The notes under the pieces: model-generated
Databases searched by the model: none
What the model saw: the letters and a program-made list of their open reading frames with translations, nothing else
What the model was told of the DNA's origin: nothing
From: an uncultured Candidatus Saccharibacteria bacterium
Lineage (GTDB): Bacteria > Patescibacteriota > WWE3 > 2-01-FULL-39-13
Length of the DNA stretch: 64,000 nt
Direction of reading: 5' to 3'
NCBI GenBank assembly: GCA_964370865.1
Contig: CAYJKF010000001.1
Location: 111,766 to 175,765, forward strand
Position numbers and translations under genes: made by a program
Shown: piece after piece, positions 2,602 through 36,446 of the stretch
How positions within the stretch are numbered: the first letter of the stretch is position 1
Layout of the letters: each line of letters begins with the position of its first letter

Positions 2602-4470
2602 ATGCCTGCCAATTTACGCTCAAAAATTAATAAAATTTTAGGGAACCTATTAATAGTCTTTTTATTGTTAGCGGGATTTACCTTATTTGCTACAAATACC
2701 CTAGCTGATGAAGCCGAAGATTTAAAAAAAATTGAAGAAGAAATCAAGAAACAAGAAAAAGAGCTTAAAGAAACCGAATCTGAACTTAACAAGGTCCGAG
2801 ATAAATCAAAGCAGATTTCAGATACCCTATCGAAACTCTCTGGTAATTTAAATCTAAATCAATCTCAAATAGACGATCTGCAAAAAAATATAGATGAACT
2901 TACAGTAGATATTAATAATTTAGACAAGAAAATGGGGATAAAAAAGGGCGATTTAGAACAAAATACTAAAATCAGAGATATTGCCCTTAAAGAGCTCTAT
3001 ATAAACAACAAGAAAAATCTTGCAGAAGTAGTTTTAGCCGAATCAGGTGTAAGCCAAATGTTCGAAACAGCAGCTTACTACTTCAATTTTGTGAACAACT
3101 CAGAATCACTAATTAGTCTTATAAATGGGGATATAAAGGGATACGAAGAAGACAAAAACGAAGTCGCCGAGATCAAAGCAAAAATCGAGACTCAAAAAGA
3201 CCAACTTAAAAAAGTAGTTGATCAACTGGCTGCTCAAGTAAATAAATCAAAGACTGACCTAGCCTCAACTGAAAAAGATGCTAATTCACTCGAAGGTGAG
3301 AAACAGAACATTCAAAGAAAACTATCAGAACTATCAGCAAAACAGCAAGCAATTTTAGGTGAGAAGACAGATAGTGGAACATTCACAACGAGTGTAGGAG
3401 ATATCCCTATGACAGGTGAAGCAAGTTCACGCGCTGACTTTAATCCTGGTTTTAAAAAAGCCTTCGCTGGATTCTCTTTTGGCGCACCACATAGAAAAGG
3501 TCTTAGCCAATATGGAGCAAAAGGCCGCGCTGAAGATGGCCAAGATTATAAGGAAATACTCAAAGCATATTATGGTGATATAGAAATTGTTGAAATGAGC
3601 GGACTTCCAAAAAACATATCCACCGATAAGGGTTCGCTAGAATTAGATGGTAAGTATCTAAATGGTCTAGCAGAAATGCCTGCTTCGTGGCATAAAGAAG
3701 CACTAAAAGCTCAAGCAGTCGCAGCAAGAACCTATGCACTTTCATATGTTGGATGGCGAGTCTCCGATAAAGAAGCCAAAAAATCTATTTGTACAACAGA
3801 AAGCTGCCAAGTGTGGTCATCCAGCAAAGCAACTGCTTCATCTGCGGCAAGTTGGCACAAAGCCGTAAGCGACACAAAGTCAGAAGTTATGGTAAGTAAA
3901 AAATCTGGTGATATATTCTCTGCCTTTTATGCAGCTTCATCTGGAGGATATAACTACAGTTATTCTAGTATCGGACACAGTACAAAAGGCGGCTGGGACA
4001 CAGAATGTGGCTCCAAAAACTGCTGGACTAGCGAAGCTTACGAAAGTAAAGGTGGTTCACCCTGGTTTTATAAAGGATGGTATAAATCAAGATCAAATAA
4101 AGCCTGTGGAAGATCTCACCCATGGCTAACCGAAAGTGAATTTGCAGATATAGTAGGAGCAGCTGTTCTCTACACTAAAGATGAAGGAAATGAGGCGCAT
4201 CTATCTCAAATTGATGCACAATCCTGCTGGGGTGAAAGTATAAGTGGAACATGGTCGAGAGATACAGTTAAGGAAAAAACTGGAATAACGAGCGTAGACA
4301 GCGTTTCTGTAAGTTACTCTAACGGTGGAACGACGGCTGAAGTGAAAATAAAAACTAATAAAGGCGAATATAAATTTAGCGGAGAGGACTTTAGAGATAT
4401 ATTTAATCTGAGAGCACCTGGAGTGCTAAATATAAAAAGCGCCTTATACAATATTGAAGTTAAAGATTAA
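2602..4470 (+). CDS. membrane-anchored coiled-coil protein with C-terminal SpoIID/LytB-type domain (peptidoglycan-remodelling)
   Basis: 622 aa. N-terminal TM/signal (ILGNLLIVFLLLAGFTLFA). About 250 aa of heptad-like K/E/L/Q-rich sequence follows. The C-terminal region carries EMPASWHKEALKAQAVAARTYALSY, which I recognise as the conserved SpoIID/LytB signature. Confidence 0.6.
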   Translation: MPANLRSKINKILGNLLIVFLLLAGFTLFATNTLADEAEDLKKIEEEIKKQEKELKETESELNKVRDKSKQISDTLSKLSGNLNLNQSQIDDLQKNIDELTVDINNLDKKMGIKKGDLEQNTKIRDIALKELYINNKKNLAEVVLAESGVSQMFETAAYYFNFVNNSESLISLINGDIKGYEEDKNEVAEIKAKIETQKDQLKKVVDQLAAQVNKSKTDLASTEKDANSLEGEKQNIQRKLSELSAKQQAILGEKTDSGTFTTSVGDIPMTGEASSRADFNPGFKKAFAGFSFGAPHRKGLSQYGAKGRAEDGQDYKEILKAYYGDIEIVEMSGLPKNISTDKGSLELDGKYLNGLAEMPASWHKEALKAQAVAARTYALSYVGWRVSDKEAKKSICTTESCQVWSSSKATASSAASWHKAVSDTKSEVMVSKKSGDIFSAFYAASSGGYNYSYSSIGHSTKGGWDTECGSKNCWTSEAYESKGGSPWFYKGWYKSRSNKACGRSHPWLTESEFADIVGAAVLYTKDEGNEAHLSQIDAQSCWGESISGTWSRDTVKEKTGITSVDSVSVSYSNGGTTAEVKIKTNKGEYKFSGEDFRDIFNLRAPGVLNIKSALYNIEVKD

Positions 4471-4471
4471 T

Positions 4472-5461
4472 CTAAAGTACACCAAACAAATCGGTTACCA
4501 CAATTCTAACAATCACACCTGAAAGAATTATTAAAAATAATCCTTGTATCCAAGACATGAACATATCTTTTCCCTTTTGAATTGTTGCTGGATCACCGCT
4601 AGATAAGTTAAGACCAATTAGTGGAAGCATAAAGAGCGAAGAAACAACACCAAGTCCTATTGCTAAGATATGTGCATTTGATCCAAGTGCAGTAAAACAA
4701 GACTCAATTCCAGCATCTGGACTACAACCCTCAAATAGTCCCCCATCAAATTCAAAACCGGGACCACTTAAGGGATCTCCAGGCACTGGTACATCTGGAT
4801 CACCAGGCGCATCCACTGGGTCGGGATCGCCTTCTATTGGCTCTGGAACATCATCCTCGTCAAGCGGTGCAGTGTAATCGAAGTAGAATGGTTGCAAACC
4901 CAAGGCGTCACCATAAAATATGCTACCATCTCGCGCAGGATCCCTTACTGGCCTTAGATAGGATAAGTTGTAACTAGCATTGTCATTCAGTTCCTGAATC
5001 ATCGCTGTCGGCAATAAAGGGTTTAACGGAATTCTAAGACCTGCACCCGAAAATAATGCATCTAGGGCGGTAGAAAGTTCTGTCGCTTTTGCTTGGGTAA
5101 CTTCAGAAGGTGAATCTACGCCCAACATTTGAGTATATAACAATGCGTTTAGGCTAAAACTAAACATATCCCCTCCTGCAATTGGTACAATTTCTCCGTC
5201 TTGCACTGAATAATCACCAATGACGATAATATAGTCATTTACATAATCACCTGATTCTCCAATTCCATCCCAAGGAATTGGACTATAAGTAAGGGGGTTG
5301 AAAGTAATATCTTTAAGCGTTAAGTACATCATTCCATCCTCTGGGTCCTGTTCGTAACCAATTCCACCAATCAATACGTCATCCTGGGCATATAATGGAC
5401 TTGAAGATAAAAGAAAAAAGAAAATACCAAGTAATCCTAAAATTAATTTGTTTGTTATCAT
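4472..5461 (-). CDS. secreted Asp/Pro-rich protein with C-terminal hydrophobic hairpin
   Basis: 329 aa. Signal peptide ending LYAQ|DD. Acidic proline-rich stretch DPDPVDAPGDPDVPVPGDP. Two C-terminal hydrophobic helices. It is convergent with 2602..4470 with a 1-nt gap. Confidence 0.4.
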   Translation of the reverse strand: MITNKLILGLLGIFFFLLSSSPLYAQDDVLIGGIGYEQDPEDGMMYLTLKDITFNPLTYSPIPWDGIGESGDYVNDYIIVIGDYSVQDGEIVPIAGGDMFSFSLNALLYTQMLGVDSPSEVTQAKATELSTALDALFSGAGLRIPLNPLLPTAMIQELNDNASYNLSYLRPVRDPARDGSIFYGDALGLQPFYFDYTAPLDEDDVPEPIEGDPDPVDAPGDPDVPVPGDPLSGPGFEFDGGLFEGCSPDAGIESCFTALGSNAHILAIGLGVVSSLFMLPLIGLNLSSGDPATIQKGKDMFMSWIQGLFLIILSGVIVRIVVTDLFGVL

Positions 5462-5939: not shown

Positions 5940-7397
5940 CTATTTTCTCTTTTTTGGTCCTGCATCTTCTCCACCGAATAGGGGTTGAACTCCAAGTAAG
6001 CCATCTACAATTTTTCTAGCATTTCTTGCTTTCCAAATTATAGAAATACCAAGAAGCCCCTTTAGTAATACGAACCAAAATTCTAATGTTGTATTAATTA
6101 TATTAAACCCGCTAAACAAAGACTCGCCACTGACATCAGGAGCTATACTCATAATTCCCAAACCTATGACTACAAGAAGGAGCAATAACGGTAATGCAAT
6201 TACATCTGAAACGATTCTCTTTCCAAGATTCATAGCAAGACCCTGTTTACCAGGTAGAACTGATAATAAACCAACAAATGGCGCAAGAACGATTGTTGAT
6301 ACAAGGGATACAAAAATCTTAATGAAACCCCAAAGCCCCGCAAACATAACTACTACTATACCTACAATTGCGGCGACCAAAAAAAGTGCCATTCCAACAC
6401 CATATACGTGTAATCTACTTATTACTCCTATGGCACTATTTAGTGCTCCAACTGCAATAGTCCATACACTAATATCCTGAACCGTGCCCCCCATAATACT
6501 CACGAGTAAGGTTGCCCCGATCCTTAAAGCAAGACCGAGTAGAGGCGGGATTAATGCAAAAGCAGCACTAATAATCGGATAGGATAATAAAATTATTCCA
6601 AGTCCTAGCGGTATTAATGGAAGTACGGAATAAACTGACACCGTGACTTGAGGAGAAATTTTAGTTCTAAACATAATCATCAAACCTACGAGTGCTAGAG
6701 CTGCTCCGAAAAGTGCCAAAGAAATATTTCGTGTAATTTTCCAAGACTCTAAAACAAACTTCTCAAAGGTAGAACCAAAAAAACCGCTCTGAGCATAGGC
6801 CGGTGTAGTAAAAATTGTATTTCCTAAAGTATCGTCAACATATAAAGCTAAATTTGTAGGAATTGGTGCCGTATTAGGTGAAGTCAAGAAGGCGAGACTA
6901 TTACTACCTATATGCCCCAAGCCGTTAGGAATTCTGACATACTCACCTTTTCCAAGATCATTAAAATTTGTTGCATTTGTCCATGTTGCGGCTGGGTCAA
7001 TACAAACTCCACTTTCTAAAAGCTCTTCCATTGTTTGATCGCATACATGTTGAGTTATATTGTTATAAACCAAATTTTGCATTAAAAATGATTGCCCCCA
7101 CATATTCGCATTTAATTCGCATTGACCATCTGAATCTACAAATTCTTTGAAACCACACCATAGGTTGTATACAGAAGATAATGATCTCCAAGCTTGTACG
7201 CCAGCTGTAACCGGATTGATAGCCTCTGCAGGAGTTGGATCTACTAATGCTCCAACTTGTGCATTTGTGGCATTTGGTTTTAATAGTGCAGACATTAAAA
7301 CAGCAAAAATGAAAATTGATAAGGCAAAGGGGAATACCCTGTCACCAAAGTTTTGTATTTTTCTAATTAATGAGAATAAAGCGACGATAATATTCAT
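5940..7397 (-). CDS. polytopic membrane protein, VirB6/TrbL-like candidate
   Basis: 485 aa. N-terminal signal/TM, a ~180-aa extracytoplasmic region, then at least 6 hydrophobic helices and a basic C-terminal tail (KKRK). The call rests on topology and genomic context only. Confidence 0.4.
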   Translation of the reverse strand: MNIIVALFSLIRKIQNFGDRVFPFALSIFIFAVLMSALLKPNATNAQVGALVDPTPAEAINPVTAGVQAWRSLSSVYNLWCGFKEFVDSDGQCELNANMWGQSFLMQNLVYNNITQHVCDQTMEELLESGVCIDPAATWTNATNFNDLGKGEYVRIPNGLGHIGSNSLAFLTSPNTAPIPTNLALYVDDTLGNTIFTTPAYAQSGFFGSTFEKFVLESWKITRNISLALFGAALALVGLMIMFRTKISPQVTVSVYSVLPLIPLGLGIILLSYPIISAAFALIPPLLGLALRIGATLLVSIMGGTVQDISVWTIAVGALNSAIGVISRLHVYGVGMALFLVAAIVGIVVVMFAGLWGFIKIFVSLVSTIVLAPFVGLLSVLPGKQGLAMNLGKRIVSDVIALPLLLLLVVIGLGIMSIAPDVSGESLFSGFNIINTTLEFWFVLLKGLLGISIIWKARNARKIVDGLLGVQPLFGGEDAGPKKRK

Positions 7398-7496: not shown

Positions 7497-10400
7497 ATGC
7501 CACCAAAAAAGTTCGAGAAACCAGTCACATTTTCTGGATGGGTTGAAGATATATTTAATCTTCCTAAAGAAGTAACTAACCAGACATTCGGAGTAATAAA
7601 AACAAAACACCAAGAATATTTGGTATGGGTAGCTAAAGCTCGTGCCTCGGATGCTGATTATGCTGAAGCAGATTTAATTCGAGCTTTTACTGAAGGTGCA
7701 GAAGCTTTATCAGATTTACAGGGTATAAATACAACTATTAAAGTTAATGAACTATACGCGAAACCTATCAATACTATTAAAGCTCTGGGACAAAGCACTC
7801 TTAAACAATTGACTGACATGGATGATCTCGCTGGTTATCGACGTGCTGATGCAATCGCTAGGTTAACCAAGGGGCAAGTTACAGACGGACGAGGTAACAT
7901 ACCAAACAGCAGATATATTGATGTTGGTCGGTCAATCAATAATCCTCAAAATTTGATCTTAAAGGGACTAACTACTTCTAGAATAATTCCTCTAAAGCCT
8001 GACGCACTAGTAGAAACCACTCCTAGTGGAAAACTGCGATCAACCATGCAACTTGTAAAAGACGTAACGGAAGGAAAAGATCCAGCAGGTGTTGGAGATT
8101 GGGAAGATCGAAAAGTTGTGGAGGATGGTGTCGGCAGGGATCAACAACATAAACCGTATTTACAACTTTCCGGAGCGTTTTCGCAAATGGCAATGGGTCT
8201 TGAGTCCTATGGCTCAAGGTTAAGTCCAAAAATTACAGTTAATACCCAATACGGTCGCGCACTTGCACAAGAAGTAGGAATTGACCTGGAAAAGGTTTTA
8301 AACGGATCAAGAGGCGGATTGAAAGCCAGTTATGACCTAGACATTAAAGATGCAGTAAGCGGAAGACCAAAATTCCTAAAAGATAATAGACTCAAAAAGA
8401 GTGGAGCAGTAACAATAGGTTCTCTGCATCTCACACTAGCAGACGATGCTGGCGGTGATATTCGGAAATTATTATCCGATGACAATTTAATAGCTAAAGC
8501 ATTATCGATTAGCCCTACTGAATACACAAGTATGAGTGGTGAAGTCAAAGAATTCTTCAAAAACTTTTTAGAAAACGAAGAAATTCAGATTCGTTCCGGT
8601 TATTTAAATCCAAGGGGCGAACTTGGTGAAGAAATAAAAGCAAAATGGAATAATGCGGGACTCGTTCCCTCTCTAGAAGGCGAAATATACACTGGTGCAG
8701 GTGCTGCTTATATTAAGAATGACTTATATCATCTATCGAATGCAAAAAGTACAAAACAGTATCTATTAGGTGATGCGTCGCAAAAACAAATTAAAGCTGA
8801 GGCCTTAAAATCTTTGAAAAAAAAATACGGACATGACGCAAAGCTATTAACAGAAAAGACCGAAGAATTTTATGACAGATTGGCTGCGTTAAATGAAGCT
8901 ACGGTATCTGCCAACACCTTATTCGCCTCTGCAACAGTTAAAGATGCACTTAAAGCTATAAAAGATGGCGATTTTATTAAAGCAGCAATCGTCAATACAA
9001 GATTGCTGGGAATGATTCCGTTTTCAAACAAAAAGATGAGATCTCCAATCGAGTGGGCTGAAATTCTTATGCCTGATAGTGCACAAGATATCATCAATAA
9101 GGGAATAAATAGACTAACTAAACCGAAAATCGATGAGTTAAAGAGATTAGCATCAAGTACGACAGATCCGGTAATTCAACAAAGATACCTTAATCAAATT
9201 AAGAATCTAGAAGGTCTGAAAAACTGGATTAATCCAATTACAATTGCCAAGAAAGTTAGCGATACCGCACAGACAGCCATTGGTATTAAGGTAAAAGGAA
9301 GTCAATTAAACGCTGCACAAAAATTGATAAATGAGCAGACCGGACTGTTCAACTCAACTGTCTTCCTGGAATGGAGACAAAGAGATCCCGTATCCATGCA
9401 AAACGCTAAACGCTACACCATGACGCGAGTAAGTTCAAAAGATGCACAAGGCTTATATGGTAAATTTGGGGTTTTTAGTATTTTTGAAGACATAGAAGCA
9501 GCAAATTTATTCGCACATCCAAGCCTATCTGGCCTCCCATATATACATGATATGCAAACGATGTTTACTGATTTATCAAACATCGATGCATTCTATGCGG
9601 AATTAGCTCGAGTTCAGAGCCATTTAAAAGCGGGGACTCCAATACCTGCGGATTTATTAGATTTTTATAACAACGTCGTAGTACCAATGAATTTCCACGA
9701 GGCATTAGGAGGTGCGGGGGAGTTTGTCATCGACAAGGTAATGGATGGATACAATCAATATAAAGTATCAGGCAAAGTTTTACTTAATAAAATATCTGAT
9801 GACGCGAAAATGGGAGTTGGCAAATTGCATGCCATTGACAGGTGGCAATTTTTAAAAACCTTCAAAGGAAGTGGCCGTGCATCACAACTAAATGATTTAT
9901 ATACAGGCTGGTTAACAAAATATAACCGCTATGCCAACTTCTTCAATGATTACATCCAAAAAAATATTATATTTGGCGATGTACTACTTGGTGTACCTAT
10001 CTTGGGAAAACTTTTTGCTCCTATTCAGGCAGTCTTACGTACGATTGGATTTAGCGAGGAAGTTACAATTGCGGCAACTGTGAGACAGTGGAAATGGGTT
10101 CAACGGCTAATCGGAACAGGAGAAAAAGCGTCGAACATAGGGGGATCACTTTCGGCACGAAGCAGTGGTTCATTATTTGTTAAATCAAGATTTTTAAGGA
10201 ATTTAACATCAAAGTTAACAGGAAAATTTGCTGGCACAGCATTAAAAGGATTAGGATTTGCACTTAAAGGTTTAACCTCTGTAATAACTGGTGGTGTAGC
10301 TTTTGTAGTTTCCACTCTCGGTACGATGGCGTTCAGTGCCAGTTTAAAACTTATTAGAGGTGATGTAAAAGGCGCAAAAATCGCGATTAAAGATGAATTT

Positions 10401-11438
10401 AAAGGATTAGTAAAAGTAGCAAAAATTGTCGTCGGTTATCCTCTTCTTGGGTTTTGTGGCTGCATTATTATTCCAATCGTAGGTATTGCCTTTGCCGTAA
10501 TCGCGATTATGGTACCAGGTTCCATGGCGCCATTTGAAGAAGTTGGTGAAGCCGTAAATGTCGGATCGGCTCTCAGTCAATCCGACTTACTACAAGTTAA
10601 TAAATCAGCAACACTTAGCGGCGACAATACTCAAATAAACTACACAGTTGTAATTACGAATATACACACACCGACTGAACCAGATGATACAGGTGAAGTT
10701 ACAATCCAACAGATTAGTGATGTCTCGTCAATGATTTTAGGATGCGACGAACCTAATGGCGGTACTTCACACAGATATGGAGATGCTGGCTTCATAGGAA
10801 ACTACGATGCTGGTTATAATTTCAACCAATATACTGGCCATGTTTTAGCAACAGGTGAAAGCTTAACCATTACTTATACTCTTTCGAATATTACAGACAA
10901 AGATGCAACGTATAATAACAATATTAACGTCCACGAATCTAGAGAAAAAATAGCTGGAAAATATGCCATCGCGAATTCAACAACAAACATAGGTAACGGG
11001 GGGTGTAATACATGTCCTAGCGGGTGGCCTGTCACTGGTGCGGTTAATATAACTAATAGGCCTGGAGAAAGTTGGACACACAGAGGTCTTTGGCCTCATT
11101 CAATAGATTTGTCACTTGTTGAAGGAACTGAAATTTATGCCACCCATAGCGGAACCGTAGCAACCTCAAATACTGGTAACTTCGGTTATGGTACACATAT
11201 TTATCTCACCTCACCGATGGGGTTTACTAGTATTTATGGACATCTTAGCGGTTTCGCGGTAGAAAACGGAGCGACTGTTCAGGCTGGAGATTTAATCGGC
11301 TATTCTGGTGATACCGGTAACTCATCCGGTCCGCATCTGCACTATGAATTCAGAATCGGGGGCTATTGCCAAGGTCAACCACTTAAGATGAAACCACCTT
11401 TCACGCCATATTATGTACCTTATGATCCGTCGTATTAG
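7497..11438 (+). CDS. giant (1313 aa) protein with central TM hairpins and C-terminal M23/LytM peptidase domain (cell-wall hydrolase)
   Basis: The C-terminus has the M23 signatures HRGLWPHSIDL (HxxxD) and GDTGNSSGPHLHYEF (HxH), flanked by glycine-rich beta segments. Residues ~870-1000 contain several hydrophobic helices (VAFVVSTLGTMAFSASL, LLGFCGCIIIPIVGIAFAVIAIMV). The N-terminal 850 aa are predicted helical and non-secreted. Confidence 0.65.
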   Translation: MPPKKFEKPVTFSGWVEDIFNLPKEVTNQTFGVIKTKHQEYLVWVAKARASDADYAEADLIRAFTEGAEALSDLQGINTTIKVNELYAKPINTIKALGQSTLKQLTDMDDLAGYRRADAIARLTKGQVTDGRGNIPNSRYIDVGRSINNPQNLILKGLTTSRIIPLKPDALVETTPSGKLRSTMQLVKDVTEGKDPAGVGDWEDRKVVEDGVGRDQQHKPYLQLSGAFSQMAMGLESYGSRLSPKITVNTQYGRALAQEVGIDLEKVLNGSRGGLKASYDLDIKDAVSGRPKFLKDNRLKKSGAVTIGSLHLTLADDAGGDIRKLLSDDNLIAKALSISPTEYTSMSGEVKEFFKNFLENEEIQIRSGYLNPRGELGEEIKAKWNNAGLVPSLEGEIYTGAGAAYIKNDLYHLSNAKSTKQYLLGDASQKQIKAEALKSLKKKYGHDAKLLTEKTEEFYDRLAALNEATVSANTLFASATVKDALKAIKDGDFIKAAIVNTRLLGMIPFSNKKMRSPIEWAEILMPDSAQDIINKGINRLTKPKIDELKRLASSTTDPVIQQRYLNQIKNLEGLKNWINPITIAKKVSDTAQTAIGIKVKGSQLNAAQKLINEQTGLFNSTVFLEWRQRDPVSMQNAKRYTMTRVSSKDAQGLYGKFGVFSIFEDIEAANLFAHPSLSGLPYIHDMQTMFTDLSNIDAFYAELARVQSHLKAGTPIPADLLDFYNNVVVPMNFHEALGGAGEFVIDKVMDGYNQYKVSGKVLLNKISDDAKMGVGKLHAIDRWQFLKTFKGSGRASQLNDLYTGWLTKYNRYANFFNDYIQKNIIFGDVLLGVPILGKLFAPIQAVLRTIGFSEEVTIAATVRQWKWVQRLIGTGEKASNIGGSLSARSSGSLFVKSRFLRNLTSKLTGKFAGTALKGLGFALKGLTSVITGGVAFVVSTLGTMAFSASLKLIRGDVKGAKIAIKDEFKGLVKVAKIVVGYPLLGFCGCIIIPIVGIAFAVIAIMVPGSMAPFEEVGEAVNVGSALSQSDLLQVNKSATLSGDNTQINYTVVITNIHTPTEPDDTGEVTIQQISDVSSMILGCDEPNGGTSHRYGDAGFIGNYDAGYNFNQYTGHVLATGESLTITYTLSNITDKDATYNNNINVHESREKIAGKYAIANSTTNIGNGGCNTCPSGWPVTGAVNITNRPGESWTHRGLWPHSIDLSLVEGTEIYATHSGTVATSNTGNFGYGTHIYLTSPMGFTSIYGHLSGFAVENGATVQAGDLIGYSGDTGNSSGPHLHYEFRIGGYCQGQPLKMKPPFTPYYVPYDPSY

Positions 11439-11457: not shown

Positions 11458-12489
11458 ATGATTAGTATAAAACCTTTGATAGAAAAAAATAAAAAAATAG
11501 CCATATTAATTCTAGTTTTATTTTTGGGTGGTTTAATTTATTATCTATTTTCGAGCGGTATATTTTTAGGTCCTGGACCAGGTACAAGTGTCATTGACCT
11601 TTCTACACCAAGTATTAATGTAGCTGGAAACCAAGAAAGTAAATATAAGATAGAAAGATCTCTTTATTTCAAAGTTACGAATCCGCACGGCGGTGAAATA
11701 CTTCCAATTTATAAATATAACAAAAATGATTTAACTACTGATGAGCAGTTAATAGGAAAAATAGCCGAAGAAGTTGGACTCACCAAAAAAAAAGAAATTA
11801 ATTCAGTTGGACAAGGAACTGTCCTTGTTTTGCATTCAGAAGATAGTGCAAGGGGTATCACATTAAATAAACAAAACAACGTTCTAACTTATAGTAATAT
11901 CAGCTACGACAAAGCTATACATTTTAAAACCAACGATCAAATCGAAAAGGCTCGTAATTCAGCAGAAAGTTTTTTGAAGGAATTAAACCTCTGGAGTGAA
12001 AATTATAGTCTAATTGGCGCTCTATATAGAGATGATAAAATATCTTCTCAACAGCCAGAAACTTCAACCCCACTAAATCAGTCTACAACTGTAGAATTTT
12101 TATTTGAAAATAAAATTGATGGCTATGAAGTATCTACTCTACCCTATTCGGTTCAAGGTGATTATATTAATATCGCGGTATCCGCTGATAATTACACCAT
12201 CACAAAAATTCAATTAGTAATTTCAGGTGAAATTTCAAGTGAACAAGGCAAGGTAAAGATTATTTCATTAAATGACCTTATTAGAGATATAGATAATGGA
12301 AACCTAAAATTAATAGATACGTTAGCAGAACCTGATGCGGTATTTGACAGAATCGTTGTGTCGGAAGCTACTATCTTTTATTATGCACTTGATGGTCAAA
12401 TAGTTCCTGCATATAGAATTACAGGAACAGCAACTGACCAACGAGGGCAAGCATCGCCTGTTTATTTTATCGCCAATGCTTTCAAATAA
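11458..12489 (+). CDS. bitopic membrane protein (N-terminal TM, extracytoplasmic domain); VirB8/PrgL-like candidate
   Basis: 343 aa with a single N-terminal helix IAILILVLFLGGLIYYLF, then a soluble domain. The VirB8-like call is based on size, topology and neighbourhood only. Confidence 0.35.
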   Translation: MISIKPLIEKNKKIAILILVLFLGGLIYYLFSSGIFLGPGPGTSVIDLSTPSINVAGNQESKYKIERSLYFKVTNPHGGEILPIYKYNKNDLTTDEQLIGKIAEEVGLTKKKEINSVGQGTVLVLHSEDSARGITLNKQNNVLTYSNISYDKAIHFKTNDQIEKARNSAESFLKELNLWSENYSLIGALYRDDKISSQQPETSTPLNQSTTVEFLFENKIDGYEVSTLPYSVQGDYINIAVSADNYTITKIQLVISGEISSEQGKVKIISLNDLIRDIDNGNLKLIDTLAEPDAVFDRIVVSEATIFYYALDGQIVPAYRITGTATDQRGQASPVYFIANAFK

Positions 12490-15400
12490 AATAGTTTATA
12501 AAATAATATTGGTTGCATTAATCCCTGTTGTGGTAATGGCAATTTTTGCAAATAGAAAAACCGAAAAAGTGTGCGCACAAGTTGAGGGCTTTGACCCAGC
12601 AAGCGCATTCGCAGAATGTATAGGACCGGAACTTGCAGCATACATGCTAGCAATATTAGATGCACAAGCTGCTGGATTAATTCCTTCTAATATCAAACTA
12701 CTATCTCCAGCCTTTAATATGACTTCGAGTACTCTTAATCCTATTGTTGGTGCTGTAAACGAAGCAGCTCCAGGAATCTTTAATCATCCAAATTTAGTTG
12801 GAATTGCAGGTAATATATATGACACTAGTGGTGGAAATTCTATGGGAGATTACTGGTCGAACCAAAATATTAACGGGCTATTTGGAAATATCCCAATTTA
12901 TATTACTGAAACAGGAAATACTGAAAATAGCGGACTATCAAACAGACAAACTGCAGATAATATTGCCGCATTACTGCAAAGCAATCCTAACATTCAAAAT
13001 ATTTCGCTATTTGTTCCAACCGGAAGTAATCCCGCGTATGGTCATCATTCGTGGTCTCAAGACGAAATAAATTATCTTTGCAGCATAACTAACGGGTGCG
13101 AAAAAATTGGTATTAATTATGGAACGTATTTTGGTGGAAATGATTATCACGATGTTAATAACTACAATATGAATTCAGGACTGCAAATCGCCGACATGGG
13201 AAGTATTCCAAGTATTATAGAGGCAGTAAACAATTCTAACGGGGATGTAATTGTAAGAATTGGAGTTGGATCAAGTTCAGGAGGATTTGATACTCCACAA
13301 GCTTATATAAAGTTTCTTAAAGAATTGGGTGACAGTTTACCCCCTGGAGCTAGCGTATTTGCTATTGCTGGTCCAAACGAACCGGATTTAGAGGGCTGGT
13401 TAAGTCCAGAATGCATGAACCTCTTACCTATTAATCCAGCTGACATGTTATGTGGAGGACGAATTGATGAAAAACCCGTGGGTTATCGAGGTGAGGTCGT
13501 TGGACATAATGGTGAAATTCCATGGAGTATCAATTCTAACTTACATCAACAGAAAGATCTTATAGGTGGAACGGTTGAAGGTCAATTAGCATCAACCCTC
13601 CAAGCAGAATTTATAATAAGAGTCCCGCCAAATACTTTTAGACACAATGATTTTAGAGTCGTATCCGATCAAATGGTAGGTTCATTAGATCCAGATGATC
13701 CAAACAATCTCTATTTCGAAGATCGGTTGAGAGACGAAGATGGATTTATAAGTCCACTGAAAGCAAATATGCCTATTTTCAACTCAGCCTTACCTGGAGT
13801 AAAAATTCCGAGTAGTTATTCAGTTGGCATAAATGAGACCTTTCAGTTTGCAGAGTCAAATGAGACACCTGAAGCATATTTAGAGAGAATTTTCAAAAAA
13901 ACTCCTGAACCTGGAGATGGACGTAAACCAGAATTCGGATGGCTCACAGAAATGCCAGCAATGGTTTTTCGAGCATGTATTCAACGGTCTGCCTGCAACC
14001 TTGGTGTAGAAGAATGTTTGAGGGCAGACGGAAGCGGTGAGCTATGCGATGGGAGCGATGATGCTGAGGATTGTAGACCATTTGGACGAACTTTTAATTT
14101 GACTGGCAGGATTGGCCATCGAGAACCTACTGAACTTCACTCGATTTCAAGAAGTTTTGAATTGCAAAAGAGACAACTTGTAGATAGACCAGGCGAACCA
14201 ACTAGTTTCGGAGCTGTTGTAACACAAGAAGATTTGTCTAGATCAACCTATGTCTTTAAAGATCCTGATTTAAATGAGTTAGCGGATGGTATGAAATATA
14301 TTCAAGAGATAAGTCAAAATAGAAATACAAACTATAAAACCTCAAGTGGAAAAGAAGTAACAGTTGCCAACACTAATAATGGTTCTTTAATCAAACCTGC
14401 AGTGGCAAATGCTCAAGGTGATCCAATGGCTCAACCACAAGGGTCACTCGGTGTTGTTGTTATCGAGTTAGGAGGCAATCAGGTTCAAATAGACTATGAA
14501 ACATGTGTTTGGCATCAACTTGGATCTGCTTGTGCAATTCGAGATGTTAGTACAACAATTAATGGACAAGGAACTTTTAACTATATACCAGTTACTCAAG
14601 CAAATATACCAAGGTGTCTAAAACCAAGCTGGGGAAATGCTCCAGTTATTACAGCAGATCTTGCACCAGGAACTTGTACAACACTAAGTGTTCACACAAG
14701 AGGTGGTAGAGTTGGTCCAGAAGGTTGTAGCGATACCTATCAAGACTCCTGCGAAATTTGTAGAGCAAATGATGGAACGATAACTCAAACCTGTGGAATA
14801 ATTCCTCCACCACCACCCGTTGATTGTAGTCAATGTGCAAGTTGGGCACCCAGTTGGCTATGCGCACCAATTATCGCAGACCCCTTACCCGAAGAAACCG
14901 AGTGTGCAGATGGAGCATGTACCTCAAGCGGAAAAATAAGCATAGAAAAAGAGATTCCATGGCAGGATGATGATGATGACCCCGATGATATAAATGATTG
15001 GATTATAAACTGGCTCGATCGACTTAGAGAAGGGGATTTTACCTGGCTAAGTGGACTCTTGGCTGGACTTTTAGAGACAGAAAGAACTGGCGTTAGATGC
15101 GATATCGACTATTCTCTTCCTTCAGAGTCCCCGGGAGGTATTCGTTTCCCAATAGGAATTGAATGTTGGTTTGGATCGCGAGATTATTTAGTATATGCAT
15201 ATCCAATAACATATATTGGCGACTTTGGTGAGAGAACGGTCGATATGTCTATAAACAATGCTATGTTCAGATTAAGTAACAAAACTGACCAATATTTTTG
15301 GCCACAAAGTACAAAAGCACCAGTAACCTTAAAGCTATCGTTAAGAGATCCAACAATTGATGACGAAACCGTAAGATTTGAGGTCCCAAATGGATCCGAA

Positions 15401-16027
15401 CGAGGCTTTGAAATTGGCGCACAAAATACGTTTTATTTAGGACTTAATGACTCTGGTGAAAGAACCATGTTTGTTGAGTATTACTACTTTATGCAACCAC
15501 AGACGAGTGGACAGTGTTTAAAACAGCGTTTCTTATCTCAACCGATTCCTTTGCCTGGCGGAGGAACCGGAGTTCCACTAAGTCATAATACGCTTTGCGG
15601 TTCTCAGGATTTTTGGACTTCTGGCATTACTAGTGGCGACACTACTTCAGCAGTGGATCAAAGAATGATGGCAGCCGTAGAACAAATAGAACAAAATCTA
15701 CTTGCTACTACTGATAGCCAAGATAAAGTTGCCGCTGAAATAAATTTAGATCAAGATATAGTTCCTCAAATTCGAAAATTATATGAACAAGATAAGCATG
15801 CAGATTATGCTGGTAGCAAAATTATGTCGAACATGACATTATCAGAAGTTGAAAATCTTCAAAATCAATTTCTTTCTGAATTTGAAATCATCCTAAATAA
15901 ATACTTCATGTCGAGTGGTAAAGGAGTTTTTAAGGATATAAACGATACACCCGAAAGCATGGAGAAAGAACTAGATGCCTTAGTTAGAAAATACGATAAT
16001 CGGGTTAGCGCTATCGTGAATAACTAA
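12476..16027 (+). CDS. giant (1183 aa) secreted Cys-rich surface protein
   Basis: N-terminal TM/signal (IILVALIPVVVMAIF). A Cys-dense segment CSDTYQDSCEICRANDG...CGIIPPPPPVDCSQCASWAPSWLCAP, an acidic DDDDDPDD run, and no catalytic motif I can place. The start overlaps the previous gene by 14 nt. Confidence 0.5.
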   Translation: MLSNKIVYKIILVALIPVVVMAIFANRKTEKVCAQVEGFDPASAFAECIGPELAAYMLAILDAQAAGLIPSNIKLLSPAFNMTSSTLNPIVGAVNEAAPGIFNHPNLVGIAGNIYDTSGGNSMGDYWSNQNINGLFGNIPIYITETGNTENSGLSNRQTADNIAALLQSNPNIQNISLFVPTGSNPAYGHHSWSQDEINYLCSITNGCEKIGINYGTYFGGNDYHDVNNYNMNSGLQIADMGSIPSIIEAVNNSNGDVIVRIGVGSSSGGFDTPQAYIKFLKELGDSLPPGASVFAIAGPNEPDLEGWLSPECMNLLPINPADMLCGGRIDEKPVGYRGEVVGHNGEIPWSINSNLHQQKDLIGGTVEGQLASTLQAEFIIRVPPNTFRHNDFRVVSDQMVGSLDPDDPNNLYFEDRLRDEDGFISPLKANMPIFNSALPGVKIPSSYSVGINETFQFAESNETPEAYLERIFKKTPEPGDGRKPEFGWLTEMPAMVFRACIQRSACNLGVEECLRADGSGELCDGSDDAEDCRPFGRTFNLTGRIGHREPTELHSISRSFELQKRQLVDRPGEPTSFGAVVTQEDLSRSTYVFKDPDLNELADGMKYIQEISQNRNTNYKTSSGKEVTVANTNNGSLIKPAVANAQGDPMAQPQGSLGVVVIELGGNQVQIDYETCVWHQLGSACAIRDVSTTINGQGTFNYIPVTQANIPRCLKPSWGNAPVITADLAPGTCTTLSVHTRGGRVGPEGCSDTYQDSCEICRANDGTITQTCGIIPPPPPVDCSQCASWAPSWLCAPIIADPLPEETECADGACTSSGKISIEKEIPWQDDDDDPDDINDWIINWLDRLREGDFTWLSGLLAGLLETERTGVRCDIDYSLPSESPGGIRFPIGIECWFGSRDYLVYAYPITYIGDFGERTVDMSINNAMFRLSNKTDQYFWPQSTKAPVTLKLSLRDPTIDDETVRFEVPNGSERGFEIGAQNTFYLGLNDSGERTMFVEYYYFMQPQTSGQCLKQRFLSQPIPLPGGGTGVPLSHNTLCGSQDFWTSGITSGDTTSAVDQRMMAAVEQIEQNLLATTDSQDKVAAEINLDQDIVPQIRKLYEQDKHADYAGSKIMSNMTLSEVENLQNQFLSEFEIILNKYFMSSGKGVFKDINDTPESMEKELDALVRKYDNRVSAIVNN

Positions 16028-16749
16028 TTAAAAAATTTCGCTATTTTATTAATTCCCCTTGTAACAGGAGATTCCTCCGCTTCTTCAGGTAGGTTTTTCT
16101 CAAATTTTATCCCTTTAAAATTTATTAAAGGATAATTAGGAAAAGAATTCTGTTTATAAAGTAAGTGACCTAAAAATTTCTCATAAAAACCAGCTCGGTT
16201 TAGAACAACCGTCATGTTCATTAATTCAAAGGATAATTGATGGATATCTTTTTGACGAATGTCAAAATATTCTTGAGCGGATTCACTAATGATAAATTCA
16301 ATTTCTGGCCTTTTCTTAAGCCATTTTCGTTTAAGAAAATTAAGCCTTAAAGAGGCAATCTCTTTACTTTGCTTTTTAACTATCACCAATATTTTAGTGG
16401 ATTTACTAGGATAGATTCCCACAAAAAGGACATACGGCTTACTTAAGACTTTTTTTATATCTTTCGACATTAAATTAATAGAATCCTTAAGTTCTTTAAA
16501 ATAGAGAACCCTTCTATTAATTAATCCTTTTAGTTCTTCACCTTCAGGATAAATATAATTATCTAGGAAATAAAGTGTTCCAGAGGTGATTGCTGTTGTA
16601 AGTAACTCCTTATAATTTTCAGGTGAAATTTGTTCATTTAAGAAAAAGTGATGCACTTCATCTTTTGTAGGACAAAAATAATGTTCAGATAAAAATGTAA
16701 TTGTGTCGTATAAGTCTTCAGTTAAATAATTCTCCTTATAATTTTCCAT
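16024..16749 (-). CDS. hypothetical cytoplasmic protein co-transcribed with rnhA
   Basis: 241 aa with no recognisable motifs. Its start overlaps the rnhA stop by 14 nt. It is convergent with 12476..16027, with a 4-nt overlap. Confidence 0.4.
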   Translation of the reverse strand: MENYKENYLTEDLYDTITFLSEHYFCPTKDEVHHFFLNEQISPENYKELLTTAITSGTLYFLDNYIYPEGEELKGLINRRVLYFKELKDSINLMSKDIKKVLSKPYVLFVGIYPSKSTKILVIVKKQSKEIASLRLNFLKRKWLKKRPEIEFIISESAQEYFDIRQKDIHQLSFELMNMTVVLNRAGFYEKFLGHLLYKQNSFPNYPLINFKGIKFEKNLPEEAEESPVTRGINKIAKFFN

Positions 16750-17158
16750 CGGCAGCTTTATTGTCTAAGCAGACATTTACTAATCTATCGGCTTCTTTAT
16801 TTTGTTCTCGTCTTACATGTGAAATAGTAAAATGTTCTAACTTATTAAGCAACTCACGTGCCTTGGCGTGCAGGAGCTTTAGATTCTCATCCTTAACTTT
16901 ATACTCCCCTTTTATTTGTTTAACGATTAATTCACTATCCATTCGTATCTCAATATTTGAATAAGAACCCTTCAAAGCTGATTCTATTCCCAATATCAAT
17001 GCCTTGTATTCAGCCACGTTATTTGTTGCCGTGCCGATAAATTCCGAATAACTATCCAAAATTTCCATATCTAGGTTATAAAAGACCGCGGCTATTGCTG
17101 AAGGCCCTGGATTACCCCTTGCTCCTCCATCCGTTTGTAATATTACTTTATTGTCCAT
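16736..17158 (-). CDS. rnhA: ribonuclease HI
   Basis: 140 aa. TDGGARGNPGPSAIAAV, TNNVAEYKALILGIE, MDSELIVKQ and HVRREQNKEADRLVN match the RNase H type-1 catalytic core (D, E, D, D, H). Confidence 0.8.
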   Translation of the reverse strand: MDNKVILQTDGGARGNPGPSAIAAVFYNLDMEILDSYSEFIGTATNNVAEYKALILGIESALKGSYSNIEIRMDSELIVKQIKGEYKVKDENLKLLHAKARELLNKLEHFTISHVRREQNKEADRLVNVCLDNKAADGKL

Positions 17159-32829: not shown

Positions 32830-34074
32830 ATGGAGAATCCTGCCAATGAGCAATTAAACACCCAAGAAGTCAACAATTCAGAATTCGCACAGAAAGAGCC
32901 ACTTGTTTATAAAAAAACTATAAAAAAATATGCAATGATCGCGGTGAGTGGCTTATTAGGACTGGCCATAATAATTACTGCTGTCGTTATCTATATGCGT
33001 TTTATGGATAGATTTAATGTGACGGAACCAACTCCACCGGTGACACCAACACCAACTCCTGAAATACCAAAAGCAGCATCGCCATTAATCGCCTATATTA
33101 AAAATGATAAATCAATTTGGATTGTAAACACTGATGGAACTGATAAAAAAGTATTGCTCGAACTGCCTGGATCATCGGATCAGTTCTTCTCGGATCTGAC
33201 TTGGAAAAGCAAAGGGTTTCTATCTTATTCACTCTGTGACACAAATCCAAATTGTACTGTGGAGACTTATAATTTAGAGACAAAGTCTTCTGTAACAGAA
33301 ATTAATAATTCAGAAGAAGGATTTGTGGAGTCATTAACTTGGGCACCTGAAAATAAATTCATCGGGTATTTTCAATACAAAGACCAAGGATCTCAGAACC
33401 AAACGGTGGAACTAAGACTTAAGACTGGAACAACCAATACTGTTTTATCAACACATAAAACAGAAATAAAAGATATCGAACAAGTCTCAAAAGTAACTTT
33501 CTCAGAAGACGAGGATCATATAGCCTTTGGTTTTGTAGAATTAGTTGCTTCAACAAGAGGCCGGACTATTACATATACAGCAAAACCTAAAATCTTAGTA
33601 TATAGAGTAAGCGGAGTATTGTTGGATACAATCAGCGATGCCAAAGACCCGATGTTCATAGACGAAAAAACCATCGCATATCAAAAGGGAGCACAGCTCA
33701 TACATAGGGAAATTGGGACATTATCAGAAACAGCTATTACTCCAATAACAGGATTCAACTTAGATGTTTCTCCTGACAAAAGTAAGTATGCATATTGGAG
33801 CCCTACAGGTGGATTCTCAGATGCTTTATTAATTATTTTTGATGGAAACCTAAACCTTCAAAGGAATATATTAAGAGGCGTCCTATTTCCACAGTGGATA
33901 AGCAACTCTACCGTTGTTGGGATAAAAGCTGATAACTGTTTAGGTTCAAAATGTGAATTATTCGATTATCAAACCATTAGTTTAGCTACCGTTAACATCG
34001 AAACAAAACAAGCAAATCCAATTGATCAAGGTCGCACTATTAAAGATGTTGAAGTAAATTACTATGCCAATTAA
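32830..34074 (+). CDS. membrane-anchored hypothetical protein with Pro/Thr linker and beta-rich extracytoplasmic domain
   Basis: 414 aa. TM helix IAVSGLLGLAIIITAVVIYM, linker TEPTPPVTPTPTPEIP, then a repetitive beta-strand-like domain. The stop overlaps the next gene's start by 11 nt. Confidence 0.4.
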   Translation: MENPANEQLNTQEVNNSEFAQKEPLVYKKTIKKYAMIAVSGLLGLAIIITAVVIYMRFMDRFNVTEPTPPVTPTPTPEIPKAASPLIAYIKNDKSIWIVNTDGTDKKVLLELPGSSDQFFSDLTWKSKGFLSYSLCDTNPNCTVETYNLETKSSVTEINNSEEGFVESLTWAPENKFIGYFQYKDQGSQNQTVELRLKTGTTNTVLSTHKTEIKDIEQVSKVTFSEDEDHIAFGFVELVASTRGRTITYTAKPKILVYRVSGVLLDTISDAKDPMFIDEKTIAYQKGAQLIHREIGTLSETAITPITGFNLDVSPDKSKYAYWSPTGGFSDALLIIFDGNLNLQRNILRGVLFPQWISNSTVVGIKADNCLGSKCELFDYQTISLATVNIETKQANPIDQGRTIKDVEVNYYAN

Positions 34075-35746
34075 AGAAGAATCACTAGAGGCCAATGCAG
34101 GTCAAAAACACCCAGTCCCACAGAACGTCATGGATGTTGAGTTTAAAGTTGTAGGAGATTTAACATTAAGGCAAGTCATGTATATTGCATTTGGGGGAGT
34201 TACAGCATACTTTTTATATAAAACAGGTTTACCAAATTTCTGGAAATATATACTAATGGGAATAAGTTTGATTACCGGAACGACAGTTGCTTTTGTTCCA
34301 ATTCAGGAACGCGGGCTTGATAAATGGTTAGTTATATTTATTAATTCAATCGTGAATCCGACCCAAATGATATGGAGAAAGTCTGTTAATTATGCCTCTG
34401 TATCCTTTTTATCAAACTACGACCAACTTCAAATAATAAAAAACGAAATGGTCTCACTTACACCTATTAAGAATCGTAACCGACTAGAAGAATATTTGGG
34501 TATGATTGAAAACACTCAAGATTCTAATTATGACCAATTCGAGATAACCCGAATGGGAGAAATCCAAAATAACCTAAGCGCTAAATCAAACGTTAGTGTC
34601 ACAACTCGCTTTGAAGAAACTCCAACTCTAGAACCTGTAATTCCGACTATTGATAAAGCCAGAATTCCAGAGAGAACACATGAAATAATTGACGTAGAAA
34701 AGAATCCAAAAATAGCTTCTCTTCCACACCAAAATACCATTGCTGAAGACGAGCTGGAGAGTAAGAAGGAGTTATTAAATGCCCTAGCAAACATCGAGGG
34801 AGGGTATAATAAAGATGGGCCAATCGAAATCTTTACTGAACAAAAGGTTAACAGACCTATTCTAAATCTACCTGAGCTTGGATCCAATAACTTCTCCTTG
34901 AAGGGTGAAATTAAATTAAAGAATATACGTAAATTCCCAACGGTAATCGTTGCCGAAGATATAAAAGGCATAAAAGAGCACGAAGAATCTCTAGAAAAAA
35001 AAGTATCAGAATTATTAATACTCGCAAAAAAAGCTAGAGCACAGTATCAAATTAAAAGTGGAAAAGAACCTAGTTTTAATACACCTATTGTTGAGGACGT
35101 TAAAGGCAGGGTTACGCAGTTAAGAGAGGAAAAGAAAAAACTTAAATTGGAAATTGATAAAAGCACAGAACAAGTAAATCTTATAGATAATACAAACAAA
35201 AACAGAGAAACACTTCAAAACCAAATTCAGATGTTAACACATAAAAATGAGGAACTTGAAACCATACTAAAGAAAATTAACTTAGAACTTGATGAACTGA
35301 AAGGAACACCAGAATACAAGGCTTCCAAGCAAAAAGAACCTGTAGAAAAGGTTGAAACTGAAGAAACTAAAACTGAAGAAGTGTTTACACCTGAAAAACC
35401 AATTACCCCAAAACCAATCGACAACCAGGTCGATGAGTTTAAATTCAAAGCAAGGCCATCCGTCAATAGTTCGTATCAAAACACTAATATTATCGAAGGA
35501 CTTGTAAAAGACATCTCTGGTAAACTAGTAGAAGGAGCAGCGGTTATTATTAAAGACTCACAGGGAAATGTTATTAGAGCCCTAAAAACTAACCAAGTCG
35601 GACAGTTCAGAACGCAGACTTCTGTACCAAATGGCAAATATACAATTGAAGTACTAAAAGGTGGCATGAGTTTTGATATTATAATAGTTGAAGCCGTTGG
35701 AAGGCATCTGAATCCAATTTACTTAGTAGCCAAGGAGTTAAATTAA
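34064..35746 (+). CDS. PrgI/VirB3-like two-helix membrane module fused to long coiled-coil domain
   Basis: The N-terminus DLTLRQVMYIAFGGVTAYFLY plus a second helix ILMGISLITGTTVAFVPI resembles the PrgI family of Gram-positive T4SS. It is followed by ~350 aa of K/E/L heptad-rich sequence. It lies directly upstream of the VirB4-like ORFs. Confidence 0.45.
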   Translation: MPIKEESLEANAGQKHPVPQNVMDVEFKVVGDLTLRQVMYIAFGGVTAYFLYKTGLPNFWKYILMGISLITGTTVAFVPIQERGLDKWLVIFINSIVNPTQMIWRKSVNYASVSFLSNYDQLQIIKNEMVSLTPIKNRNRLEEYLGMIENTQDSNYDQFEITRMGEIQNNLSAKSNVSVTTRFEETPTLEPVIPTIDKARIPERTHEIIDVEKNPKIASLPHQNTIAEDELESKKELLNALANIEGGYNKDGPIEIFTEQKVNRPILNLPELGSNNFSLKGEIKLKNIRKFPTVIVAEDIKGIKEHEESLEKKVSELLILAKKARAQYQIKSGKEPSFNTPIVEDVKGRVTQLREEKKKLKLEIDKSTEQVNLIDNTNKNRETLQNQIQMLTHKNEELETILKKINLELDELKGTPEYKASKQKEPVEKVETEETKTEEVFTPEKPITPKPIDNQVDEFKFKARPSVNSSYQNTNIIEGLVKDISGKLVEGAAVIIKDSQGNVIRALKTNQVGQFRTQTSVPNGKYTIEVLKGGMSFDIIIVEAVGRHLNPIYLVAKELN

Positions 35747-36442
35747 ATGAATAACAATATCAAAACTACGACACAAGGTCACCTTGACATAGCAGATATA
35801 AAAAATAATATTGTAATCTTAACAAACGGAGGAGCCTGCGCAATTATAGAAACCAATGCAATTAATTTTGATTTATTATCCCTACCCGAACAAGATGCAG
35901 CGATTTCATCCTTTAGTGCGTTGCTCAATTCCCTAACTTTTCCAATGCAGATTACAATTAGATCAAAAAAAATGGACATAAGCGAGTATTTAGAAAGGAT
36001 TAAAGAAGTTGAAGATAAACAAACAAACCCCAAGATCAGAGGACAAATAATGGCATACAGAACGTTCATCAAAGACGAACTTGTTACAAAAGAGGAAGTT
36101 TTAGATAAAAATTTTTACGTCACTATTCCATACAAAACAGTTTCTCTTGGTTCAATTTCACCTATGACTTGGATAAATGACTTAATGAATTTAGATACAA
36201 AAAACAAAAGTAAAATAAATGTCGAATCCATATTACAAGAAGCTACTCCAGATCTAGCCCCGAAAATTTCGTTTATACTTAAAGAATTCTCGAGGATGGG
36301 AATAAAAGCAAGACAATTAGGAACTGGCGAATTGATTAAACTTTTCTATGATTTATATAATAGTGAGAGTGCTCAGAGCCAGAAAATGAGGACCAATATG
36401 GCAGACTTCTCGTCTGTATTAGTTGAGCCAAAATTAGGATAA
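35747..36442 (+). CDS. VirB4/PrgJ-like conjugation ATPase, N-terminal domain (separate ORF)
   Basis: 231 aa. HLDIADIKNNIVILTNGGACAIIETNAINFDLLSLPEQDAAISSFSALLNSLTFPMQI matches the N-terminal domain pattern of Gram-positive VirB4 homologs. It ends at TAA 36440-36442, 4 nt before the next ORF, which is in a different frame. Confidence 0.55.
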   Translation: MNNNIKTTTQGHLDIADIKNNIVILTNGGACAIIETNAINFDLLSLPEQDAAISSFSALLNSLTFPMQITIRSKKMDISEYLERIKEVEDKQTNPKIRGQIMAYRTFIKDELVTKEEVLDKNFYVTIPYKTVSLGSISPMTWINDLMNLDTKNKSKINVESILQEATPDLAPKISFILKEFSRMGIKARQLGTGELIKLFYDLYNSESAQSQKMRTNMADFSSVLVEPKLG

Positions 36443-36446
36443 AAAT

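Follow-up and report, generated by a model that had tools for sequence, protein, structure and literature searches.

A circularly permuted, clan GH-A-like barrel in a predicted secreted giant protein encoded among pilin-like and wall-hydrolase genes of Patescibacteria

The gene and its permuted barrel

The window analysed here is a 64,000-nucleotide stretch of contig CAYJKF010000001.1 (assembly GCA_964370865.1) from an uncultured Candidatus Saccharibacteria bacterium. It has a GC content of about 36% and carries housekeeping genes, and is therefore chromosomal. On its forward strand lies an operon of three genes. The first (7497..11438) encodes a 1313-residue giant with three to four transmembrane (TM) segments (residues 823-1013) and a C-terminal Peptidase_M23 domain, and is conserved upstream of the orthologues in loci L001, L003, L005 and L051. 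The second (11458..12489) encodes a 343-residue protein that matches no family and has a single TM segment, at its N-terminus. The third, the subject of this work, is a genuine open reading frame (ORF; 12476-16027) that opens with ATG and encodes 1183 residues. Its start-codon region (12476..12489, forward strand) overlaps the 3' end of the preceding ORF by 14 nucleotides; the same overlap recurs in the orthologous loci L001 and L004, and one of 4 nucleotides is found in L003. An earlier note had read the product as a large, probably exported, disulfide-rich protein translationally coupled to the upstream gene, and the present analysis supports that description.

In another assembly of the same genome (ENA ERZ13692952), a scaffold gap of 10 N replaces 29 nucleotides of the barrel domain described below (L051:2833-2844, equivalent to window 12983-13011), splitting the gene call into proteins of 191 and 952 residues. 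An 85%-identical orthologue from an independent assembly is uninterrupted across the gap point. The ORF in the window is intact.

The protein begins with the export signal or anchor that had been noted earlier (residues 1-35; 12476..12580, forward strand). It consists of a lysine-rich n-region and a 16-residue hydrophobic core and closes with KVCA/Q. The hydrophobic segment, at about residues 5-27, is single, and no other Kyte-Doolittle window in the whole protein exceeds 1.6. The A-Q motif ends the N-terminal hydrophobic stretch in orthologues and in relatives with other chain orders too. This pattern makes VCA34 a plausible end of a cleaved signal. With a c-region of about 10 residues, which is long, the segment may instead be an uncleaved anchor.

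The next region (residues 36-320; 12581..13435, forward strand) is predicted to form a circularly permuted (β/α)8 barrel resembling the catalytic domains of glycoside hydrolase (GH) clan A, GH-A. The AlphaFold2 (AF2) model of residues 33-340 has eight alternating strand/helix units, with a predicted local distance difference test (pLDDT) of 88.2 and a predicted template-modelling score (pTM) of 0.86. The strand order is β5-6-7-8-1-2-3-4, the chain running through α4, β5, β6, β7, β8, β1, β2, β3 and β4. Three segments can be distinguished, all on the forward strand. Segment C (residues 36-164; 12581..12967) holds helix α4, β5 (LLSPAFN81), β6 (AGN113IY115) and β7 (ITE145TG), and comes after the NEP block in relatives with other orders. 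Segment A (residues 165-207; 12968..13096), with helix α7 and β8 (LFVPTGSNP), is N-terminal in β8-first relatives and C-terminal in standard-order relatives. Segment B (residues 208-314; 13097..13417) contributes β1 (GIN214YG), β2 (LQIA), β3 (VR261IG) and β4 (FAIAGPNE302P).

When the family alignments were mapped on the AF2 model, the invariant residues all fell at or just past the C-terminal ends of strands. They are Asn81 after LLSPAF, Asn113 and Tyr115 in AGNIY, Glu145 in ITETG, Phe179 and Asn185 after LFVP, Asn214 in GINYG, Arg261 in VRIG, and Asn301-Glu302-Pro303 after FAIAG. The predicted catalytic nucleophile is Glu145 (codon 12908..12910, forward strand), situated within ITETG (residues 143-147) at the end of β7, which is strand 109-114 of the model; it is invariant in alignments A1, A2 and A3. 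The predicted acid/base is Glu302 (codon 13379..13381, forward strand) in NEP (residues 301-303), after β4 and following model strand 262-265; here the whole G-P-N-E-P is invariant in the same three alignments. In the retaining glycosidases of clan GH-A the acid/base is carried by β4 and the nucleophile by β7, an arrangement known as the 4/7 rule. The ITETG strand of the protein lies three strands past the NEP strand round the ring, which reproduces the 4/7 layout round the circle but not along the chain, where the two motifs come in reverse.

The earlier note had seen the TETG and NEP motifs, dismissed them for their wrong order and concluded that no enzymatic motif was recognisable. Neither judgement holds. 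Across more than 150 diverged relatives both motifs stay invariant, each at the C-terminal end of its strand (β7 and β4), and there are homologues that carry the two in the opposite linear order. The supposedly wrong order is that of a clan GH-A-like catalytic barrel that has been circularly permuted. What that note observed was largely right, and the motif pair it discarded is its most interesting point.

Families of clan GH-A (GH1, GH5, GH10, GH26, GH39 and GH53) share with the query the predicted (β/α)8 barrel, the Asn-Glu-Pro acid/base, the Thr-Glu nucleophile three strands on and a conserved Tyr one strand ahead of the nucleophile, and the top structural neighbours of the query come from this clan. 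Unlike them, the query has rotated strands (β5-8, then β1-4) in place of the standard β1-8 topology, matches no profile past its curated threshold, and has structural scores to the clan that are no better than those to unrelated TIM barrels. It is nonetheless very unlikely that the domain belongs to some other TIM-barrel superfamily, is not a glycoside hydrolase, and resembles clan GH-A in NEP and TExG by coincidence. The acidic motifs are three strands apart in circular order, as the 4/7 rule has it, and the only recurring Pfam match in the family is to a GH-A family. The nucleophile motif of a GH1 β-glucosidase (8ht0_A, GNIPIYITENG) aligns residue for residue with GNIPIYITETG of the query (E=0.013), and the fusion partners found in the family are cell-wall hydrolases.

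Four circular orders in one family

The first homologue search returned 37 proteins, 19 of them collinear with the query by BLAST coordinates. In 17 others, query residues 167-313 matched residues ~25-190 and query residues 42-151 matched residues ~190-315, each as two independently significant high-scoring segment pairs (1.6e-26 and 3.9e-18 in P0012, for example). The named relatives in this search were all Patescibacteria/CPR (candidate phyla radiation), including WWE3, Woesebacteria, Dojkabacteria, Collierbacteria and others. Almost every homologue retains both NEP and [ILV]TE.G; one group has NEP ahead of TE.G, and the other, which includes the query, has the reverse. A profile search of 1.84 billion representative proteins gave 321 clusters, 160 of them at E<=1e-30.

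The family profile was split into four blocks: A (α7-β8), B1 (β1-β2), B2 (β3-β4) and C (α4-β5-β7). The blocks, as separate sub-profiles (hidden Markov models, HMMs), were located independently in 171 family sequences. The query type, C-A-B1-B2 (β5-8, β1-4), was found in 94 sequences and in 11 more with one weak block. The β8-first order A-B1-B2-C was found in 30, the standard β1-8 order B1-B2-C-A in 24, and the β3-first order B2-C-A-B1 in 7. Each of these orders is a rotation of the same ring, and the 171 sequences include none that is not cyclic. The proteins are not tandem repeats, because each has one motif set. After reordering, identity is about 36% between types versus 38-54% within types.

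Although the scaffold gap in the other assembly falls exactly between the two swapped blocks, next to no probability attaches to the swapped order being an artefact of assembly or gene calling. The query order is present in 105 independent cluster representatives and in dozens of contigs from different studies, the 85%-identical orthologue reads through the junction, and AF2 folds the permuted chain to a closed barrel with high confidence.

In a neighbour-joining tree of the reordered domains the β3-first sequences form one clade, while the β8-first and standard types are mostly, though not cleanly, clustered; the tree is rough and unfit for counting permutation events. Duplication intermediates were looked for in the HMM table and by motif counts, and none were found. 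Four sequences that had appeared promising in the table (P0107, P0069, P0075 and P0077) were rejected, each having a single motif set.

Standard-order members occur outside CPR as well. Haliangium ochraceum, a myxobacterium, has one among its hypothetical proteins (P0175), and some standard-order members carry cohesin or dockerin modules. This suggests, without proving it, an ancestral standard order from which the permuted forms arose inside Patescibacteria. The standard-order members P0175, P0173 and P0180, all from outside Patescibacteria, are short (435-530 residues) and include the protein of the predatory myxobacterium and cohesin/dockerin fusions.

A pair of cysteines follows the position of the chain ends. 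In the β8-first and β3-first types, two conserved Cys, 7-17 residues apart, flank the loop between the acid/base and α4 (NEP..E.W..C ... C.G..LA.YMN). In the query type the chain is cut in that loop. The conserved part of the domain now ends with Cys313 (codon 13412..13414, forward strand, in WLSPEC; nearly invariant in alignments A2 and A4) and begins with Cys48 (codon 12617..12619, forward strand, in ECIGPE), at a distance of about 267 residues. Judging from these positions, the old loop disulfide, as C48-C313, probably clamps the new termini.

The only recurring Pfam match in the family is PF11790, Glyco_hydro_cc, the GH128 β-1,3-glucanase family (PMC11609419), and it stays below threshold. 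It was made by 4 of 20 standard-order members (best E=3.6e-4, 18-19 bits, against a Pfam gathering threshold of 21 bits) and by one further member at E=1.7e-5. GH128 is a small GH-A barrel of similar size, and the matches of the standard-order members to it are collinear over profile positions ~70-226. The last homologue search, with the standard-order profile, found no bridge to proteins annotated as GH128. The domain is thus described as GH-A-like in predicted fold and catalytic layout, and is not assigned to GH128 or to any other classified family. A Pfam comparison of a hand-rejoined query and nine query-type domains, which gave Glyco_hydro_cc at E=0.16 and 0.011, was unconvincing and was not used as evidence.

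TIM barrels are seldom found circularly permuted in nature. The standard example, and the textbook case for a glycosidase (β/α)8 barrel, is the pair of GH70 glucansucrases and GH13 α-amylases, recognised from the rotated order of their motifs (PMC5216370). That pair belongs to another clan (GH-H), has another chemistry and represents one permutation between two old families, whereas in the present family four rotations coexist at about 36% identity. Searches of the literature turned up neither a permuted GH-A or GH128-like family nor any description of the present family in CPR.

The C-terminal region and the neighbouring genes

Residues 331-1183 are common only to about a dozen orthologues. 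A search with the C-terminal 853 residues alone returned only the protein itself and its 85%-identical orthologue. The protein has 28 Cys in all (2.4%); across the orthologues, 20 of those in the C-terminal part are almost unchanging. A five-Cys motif (residues 501-533; 13976..14074, forward strand) comprises C501, C507, C514, C524 and C533, nearly invariant in alignment A4, with a pLDDT of ~65-71. A strand-rich β-sandwich region (residues 650-820; 14423..14935, forward strand; pLDDT 60-83) contains the dense Cys cluster and a PPPPP run at residues 777-781. The cluster and its Cys-rich peptides are as reported earlier, except that the count of about 14 Cys in 80 residues was too high: there are 9 per 80 residues, or 10 in the 82 residues 734-815. 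This clustering is non-random, since only 12 of 20000 shuffles reach 10 in 82 residues. The acidic tract is likewise present; it reads DDDDDPDD (residues 831-838; 14966..14989, forward strand), seven Asp in eight residues and not the eight consecutive Asp once described. The chain ends in a helical, probably coiled-coil region (residues 1057-1183; 15644..16024, forward strand) with long model helices at pLDDT ~60-77.

Structure prediction for β-helix or immunoglobulin (Ig)-like folds had been suggested earlier. Foldseek gave generic Ig-like, CARDB and SoxZ matches to the strand-rich region at ~650-800 (E ~5e-3), treated as weak, and the C-terminal model as a whole is poor. Other family members have different C-terminal regions, among them Peptidase_M23, SLT_3, SLT_4, Peptidase_C39-like, C70 and GDSL/SGNH domains. 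Almost all of these fusion partners are cell-wall hydrolase modules.

The protein could also be read as a non-catalytic adhesin, or a pilus-tip or cargo protein, in which the barrel binds sugar as a pseudo-enzyme and attachment to a host surface falls to the Cys-rich C-terminal part. The large, lineage-specific, disulfide-rich extracellular region with its Ig-like sandwich and helical tail would suit such a protein, as would the adjacent pilin genes and the lack of any enzyme family matched at curated thresholds. This reading is nevertheless quite unlikely. Pseudo-enzymes usually lose their catalytic residues, whereas here both Glu, the flanking N-E-P and T-E-x-G, and Tyr115 show little or no variation despite four chain orders and an identity of about 36%. 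The barrel alone is common to the family, and the C-terminal parts are interchangeable. A pure adhesin or cargo role, as had been proposed for the protein, could still fit the C-terminal 850 residues, modelled at pLDDT 50.

The earlier placement of the gene in a secretion or pilus neighbourhood is supported: relatives of VirB2-like pilins, a polytopic membrane protein, the M23 giant and a SpoIID protein lie close by, and PrgI, TrsD and VirB4 genes lie about 18 kb downstream. The operon order, M23 giant, 343-residue membrane protein and target, is kept in orthologous loci. So are the flanks, which comprise SpoIID, pilin-like genes, a polytopic membrane protein of 457-485 residues, RNase H, DUF4012 and L25. 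About 820 N-terminal residues of the M23 giant have no TM segment or family match; they are followed by the TM segments and an outside part that ends in M23. In PHROGs, this M23 domain also matches the terminal M23 domains of phage tape-measure proteins and endolysins.

The gene at 4472..5461 (reverse strand) encodes a 329-residue relative of genes that match T4SS_pilin in other loci. In phmmer it matched a gene of L001 that itself has a faint T4SS_pilin match (E=4e-22) and a pilin of L050 (E=1.7e-4). The β8-first members P0019 and P0021 stand directly after arrays of up to nine T4SS_pilin genes, near SpoIID and an M23 giant. In L050 an array of at least eight T4SS_pilin (VirB2-like) genes, with small unannotated genes between them, lies directly upstream of a β8-first member (L050:4378-9985), and this member also has a C-terminal SLT_3 lysozyme-like domain. 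The SpoIID-domain gene of the window (2602..4470, forward strand), whose product has a long coiled coil, belongs to a type found about 5 kb upstream of family genes and conserved in 10 of 50 loci. The coiled coil takes up 250 residues at the N-terminus, and the gene adjoins pilin arrays.

A divergent 485-residue polytopic membrane protein is encoded at 5940..7397 (reverse strand). In 19 of 50 loci a relative of it adjoins the family gene, in many cases immediately downstream, and it is a candidate divergent VirB6/TrbL. As for that assignment, one of 20 relatives matched TrbL (E=0.006), and there was no match in Pfam or the PDB. Proteins of this polytopic family have 6-8 TM segments after a large N-terminal loop (window 5940-7397 on the reverse strand, L015:3624-5243, L025:10545-12293, L040:10404-11981, L047:11143-12816 and others). 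According to a 2025 survey of Patescibacteria type IV secretion systems (T4SS), VirB6 is seemingly missing in Microgenomatia (PMC12102498); the polytopic family may be this "missing" divergent VirB6.

A T4SS core module is located at 32830-38561 (forward strand). It contains a PrgI-family (VirB3-like) gene with CarboxypepD_reg (34064-35746), a TrsD/VirB4-N-like gene (35747-36442) and a VirB4-like ATPase with TraG P-loop/AAA_10 matches (36447-38561). Between this module and the target operon are the genes for L25, FtsJ, LeuRS, SBP and GroEL. An RNase H-like gene (RVT_3/RNase_H) is always directly downstream of target orthologues (window 16736-17158 and 16024-16749, both on the reverse strand; L001:13317-13742, forward; L003:14794-15195, reverse). 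As its orientation is opposite between genomes, the gene order has been kept across a local inversion. At the far end of the window (60890-63979, reverse strand) a 1029-residue giant combines a CarbopepD_reg-like domain with a partial match to Glyco_hydro_16 (E=1e-6). This protein is unrelated to the permuted family and is possibly another secreted glycanase.

The SpoIID and M23 neighbours are classic wall-remodelling enzymes, the fusion partners in the family are general wall hydrolases, and VirB4 is 18 kb away. These facts could be taken to mean that the protein is a housekeeping autolysin that acts on the cell's own wall in growth and division and has no connection to secretion or pili. Such a role is unlikely, given that VirB2-like pilin and polytopic membrane genes recur next to family genes in many unrelated Patescibacteria contigs. 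In addition, the standard-order relatives in a predatory myxobacterium and in cohesin/dockerin fusions point to foreign polymers.

A candidate glycanase for envelope crossing

The best explanation is probably that the protein is a secreted envelope-glycan hydrolase of a Patescibacteria type IV secretion/pilus locus, built on a circularly permuted barrel. The analysis itself shows the predicted fold, the permutation, the constancy of the motifs and the linkage of the genes; from these, catalysis, signal cleavage, localisation, the disulfide, the substrate and the biological role are inferred. In the proposed mechanism, the N-terminal signal would direct a protein of about 1150 residues to Sec export, and disulfides would assist its folding outside the cell. 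The permuted barrel would act as a retaining β-glycanase, by double displacement, on a β-linked envelope polysaccharide, with Glu145 as nucleophile, Glu302 as acid/base and Asn301, Tyr115, Asn81, Asn214 and Arg261 placed along its C-terminal face. The barrel chain, having started at α4, would end just past the acid/base loop, and C48-C313 would staple the new chain ends together. The lineage-specific, disulfide-rich C-terminal 850 residues, with at least one Ig-like sandwich, an acidic tract and a helical tail, may serve as a spacer or targeting module. The co-made M23 endopeptidase and the barrel could together open the cell's own wall, or that of an attached host, for passage of the pilus or T4SS.

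Several results weigh against this explanation. First, Pfam, NCBIfam and PHROG scans of the whole query protein gave no family match, and the β8-first (A1) and standard-order (A3) domain profiles found nothing meaningful among PDB sequences. Second, PF11790 was not matched by the query in the Pfam scan, and the query blocks rejoined by hand in standard order reached 12 bits (E=0.16); both stay under the gathering threshold. Third, the geometry of Glu145 and Glu302 and of the Cys pair is a proposal read from strand positions and sequence spacing. Fourth, the C-terminal 70% of the protein is poorly modelled. Fifth, the PrgI, TrsD-like and VirB4-like genes are at 34-38.5 kb of the window, about 18 kb from the target and with housekeeping genes between. 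Finally, no clan GH-A family is known to act on peptidoglycan. None of the rival explanations, however, accounts as well for a predicted catalytic pair that is invariant across four chain orders.

The family resembles the VirB1-type wall hydrolases (PrgK, TraG of pIP501, CwlT), which are large secreted multi-domain hydrolases encoded with T4SS or pilin genes. Some members have SLT-like or peptidase fusions, and the gene is paired with that of an M23 peptidase. Unlike VirB1-type enzymes, the query has no SLT/lysozyme or CHAP/NlpC domain, its TIM barrel is not lysozyme-like, and virB4 is not adjacent. A further-reaching scheme is doubtful, if conceivable: that the family was permuted at least three times, with new ends after β2, β4 and β7 and with the catalytic residues and about 36% identity retained, that permuted forms exist only in Patescibacteria and the standard form elsewhere too, that a loop disulfide became a clasp for the new termini in the query type, and that the family is the missing VirB1-equivalent glycosidase with which the Patescibacteria type IV secretion/pilus apparatus breaches the envelope of the host or of the cell itself.

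What emerges is a GH-A-like family without annotation, found in four circular orders and linked to the Patescibacteria pilin/T4SS envelope locus. If the assignment is true, four of the eight possible rotations in one family would constitute a natural experiment on barrel folding, on the termini that are tolerated and on the origin of permutations. Permutation would hide the domain from linear profile methods, and hundreds of giant Patescibacteria "hypothetical proteins" may thus have been left unannotated.

Patescibacteria live attached to other cells and depend on T4SS and pilin arrays. The 2025 survey found VirB2 arrays to be widespread, and T4SS and pilin arrays were essential in one tested Patescibacteria species (PMC12102498). 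VirB1 homologues are scarce and rarely near virB4, and other glycosidases may fill the VirB1 role (PMC12102498). With VirB1 homologues mostly missing in Patescibacteria, a predicted glycosidase that is conserved, probably secreted and encoded alongside pilins, SpoIID and an M23 peptidase would be a concrete, testable candidate for wall crossing by the T4SS/pilus apparatus.

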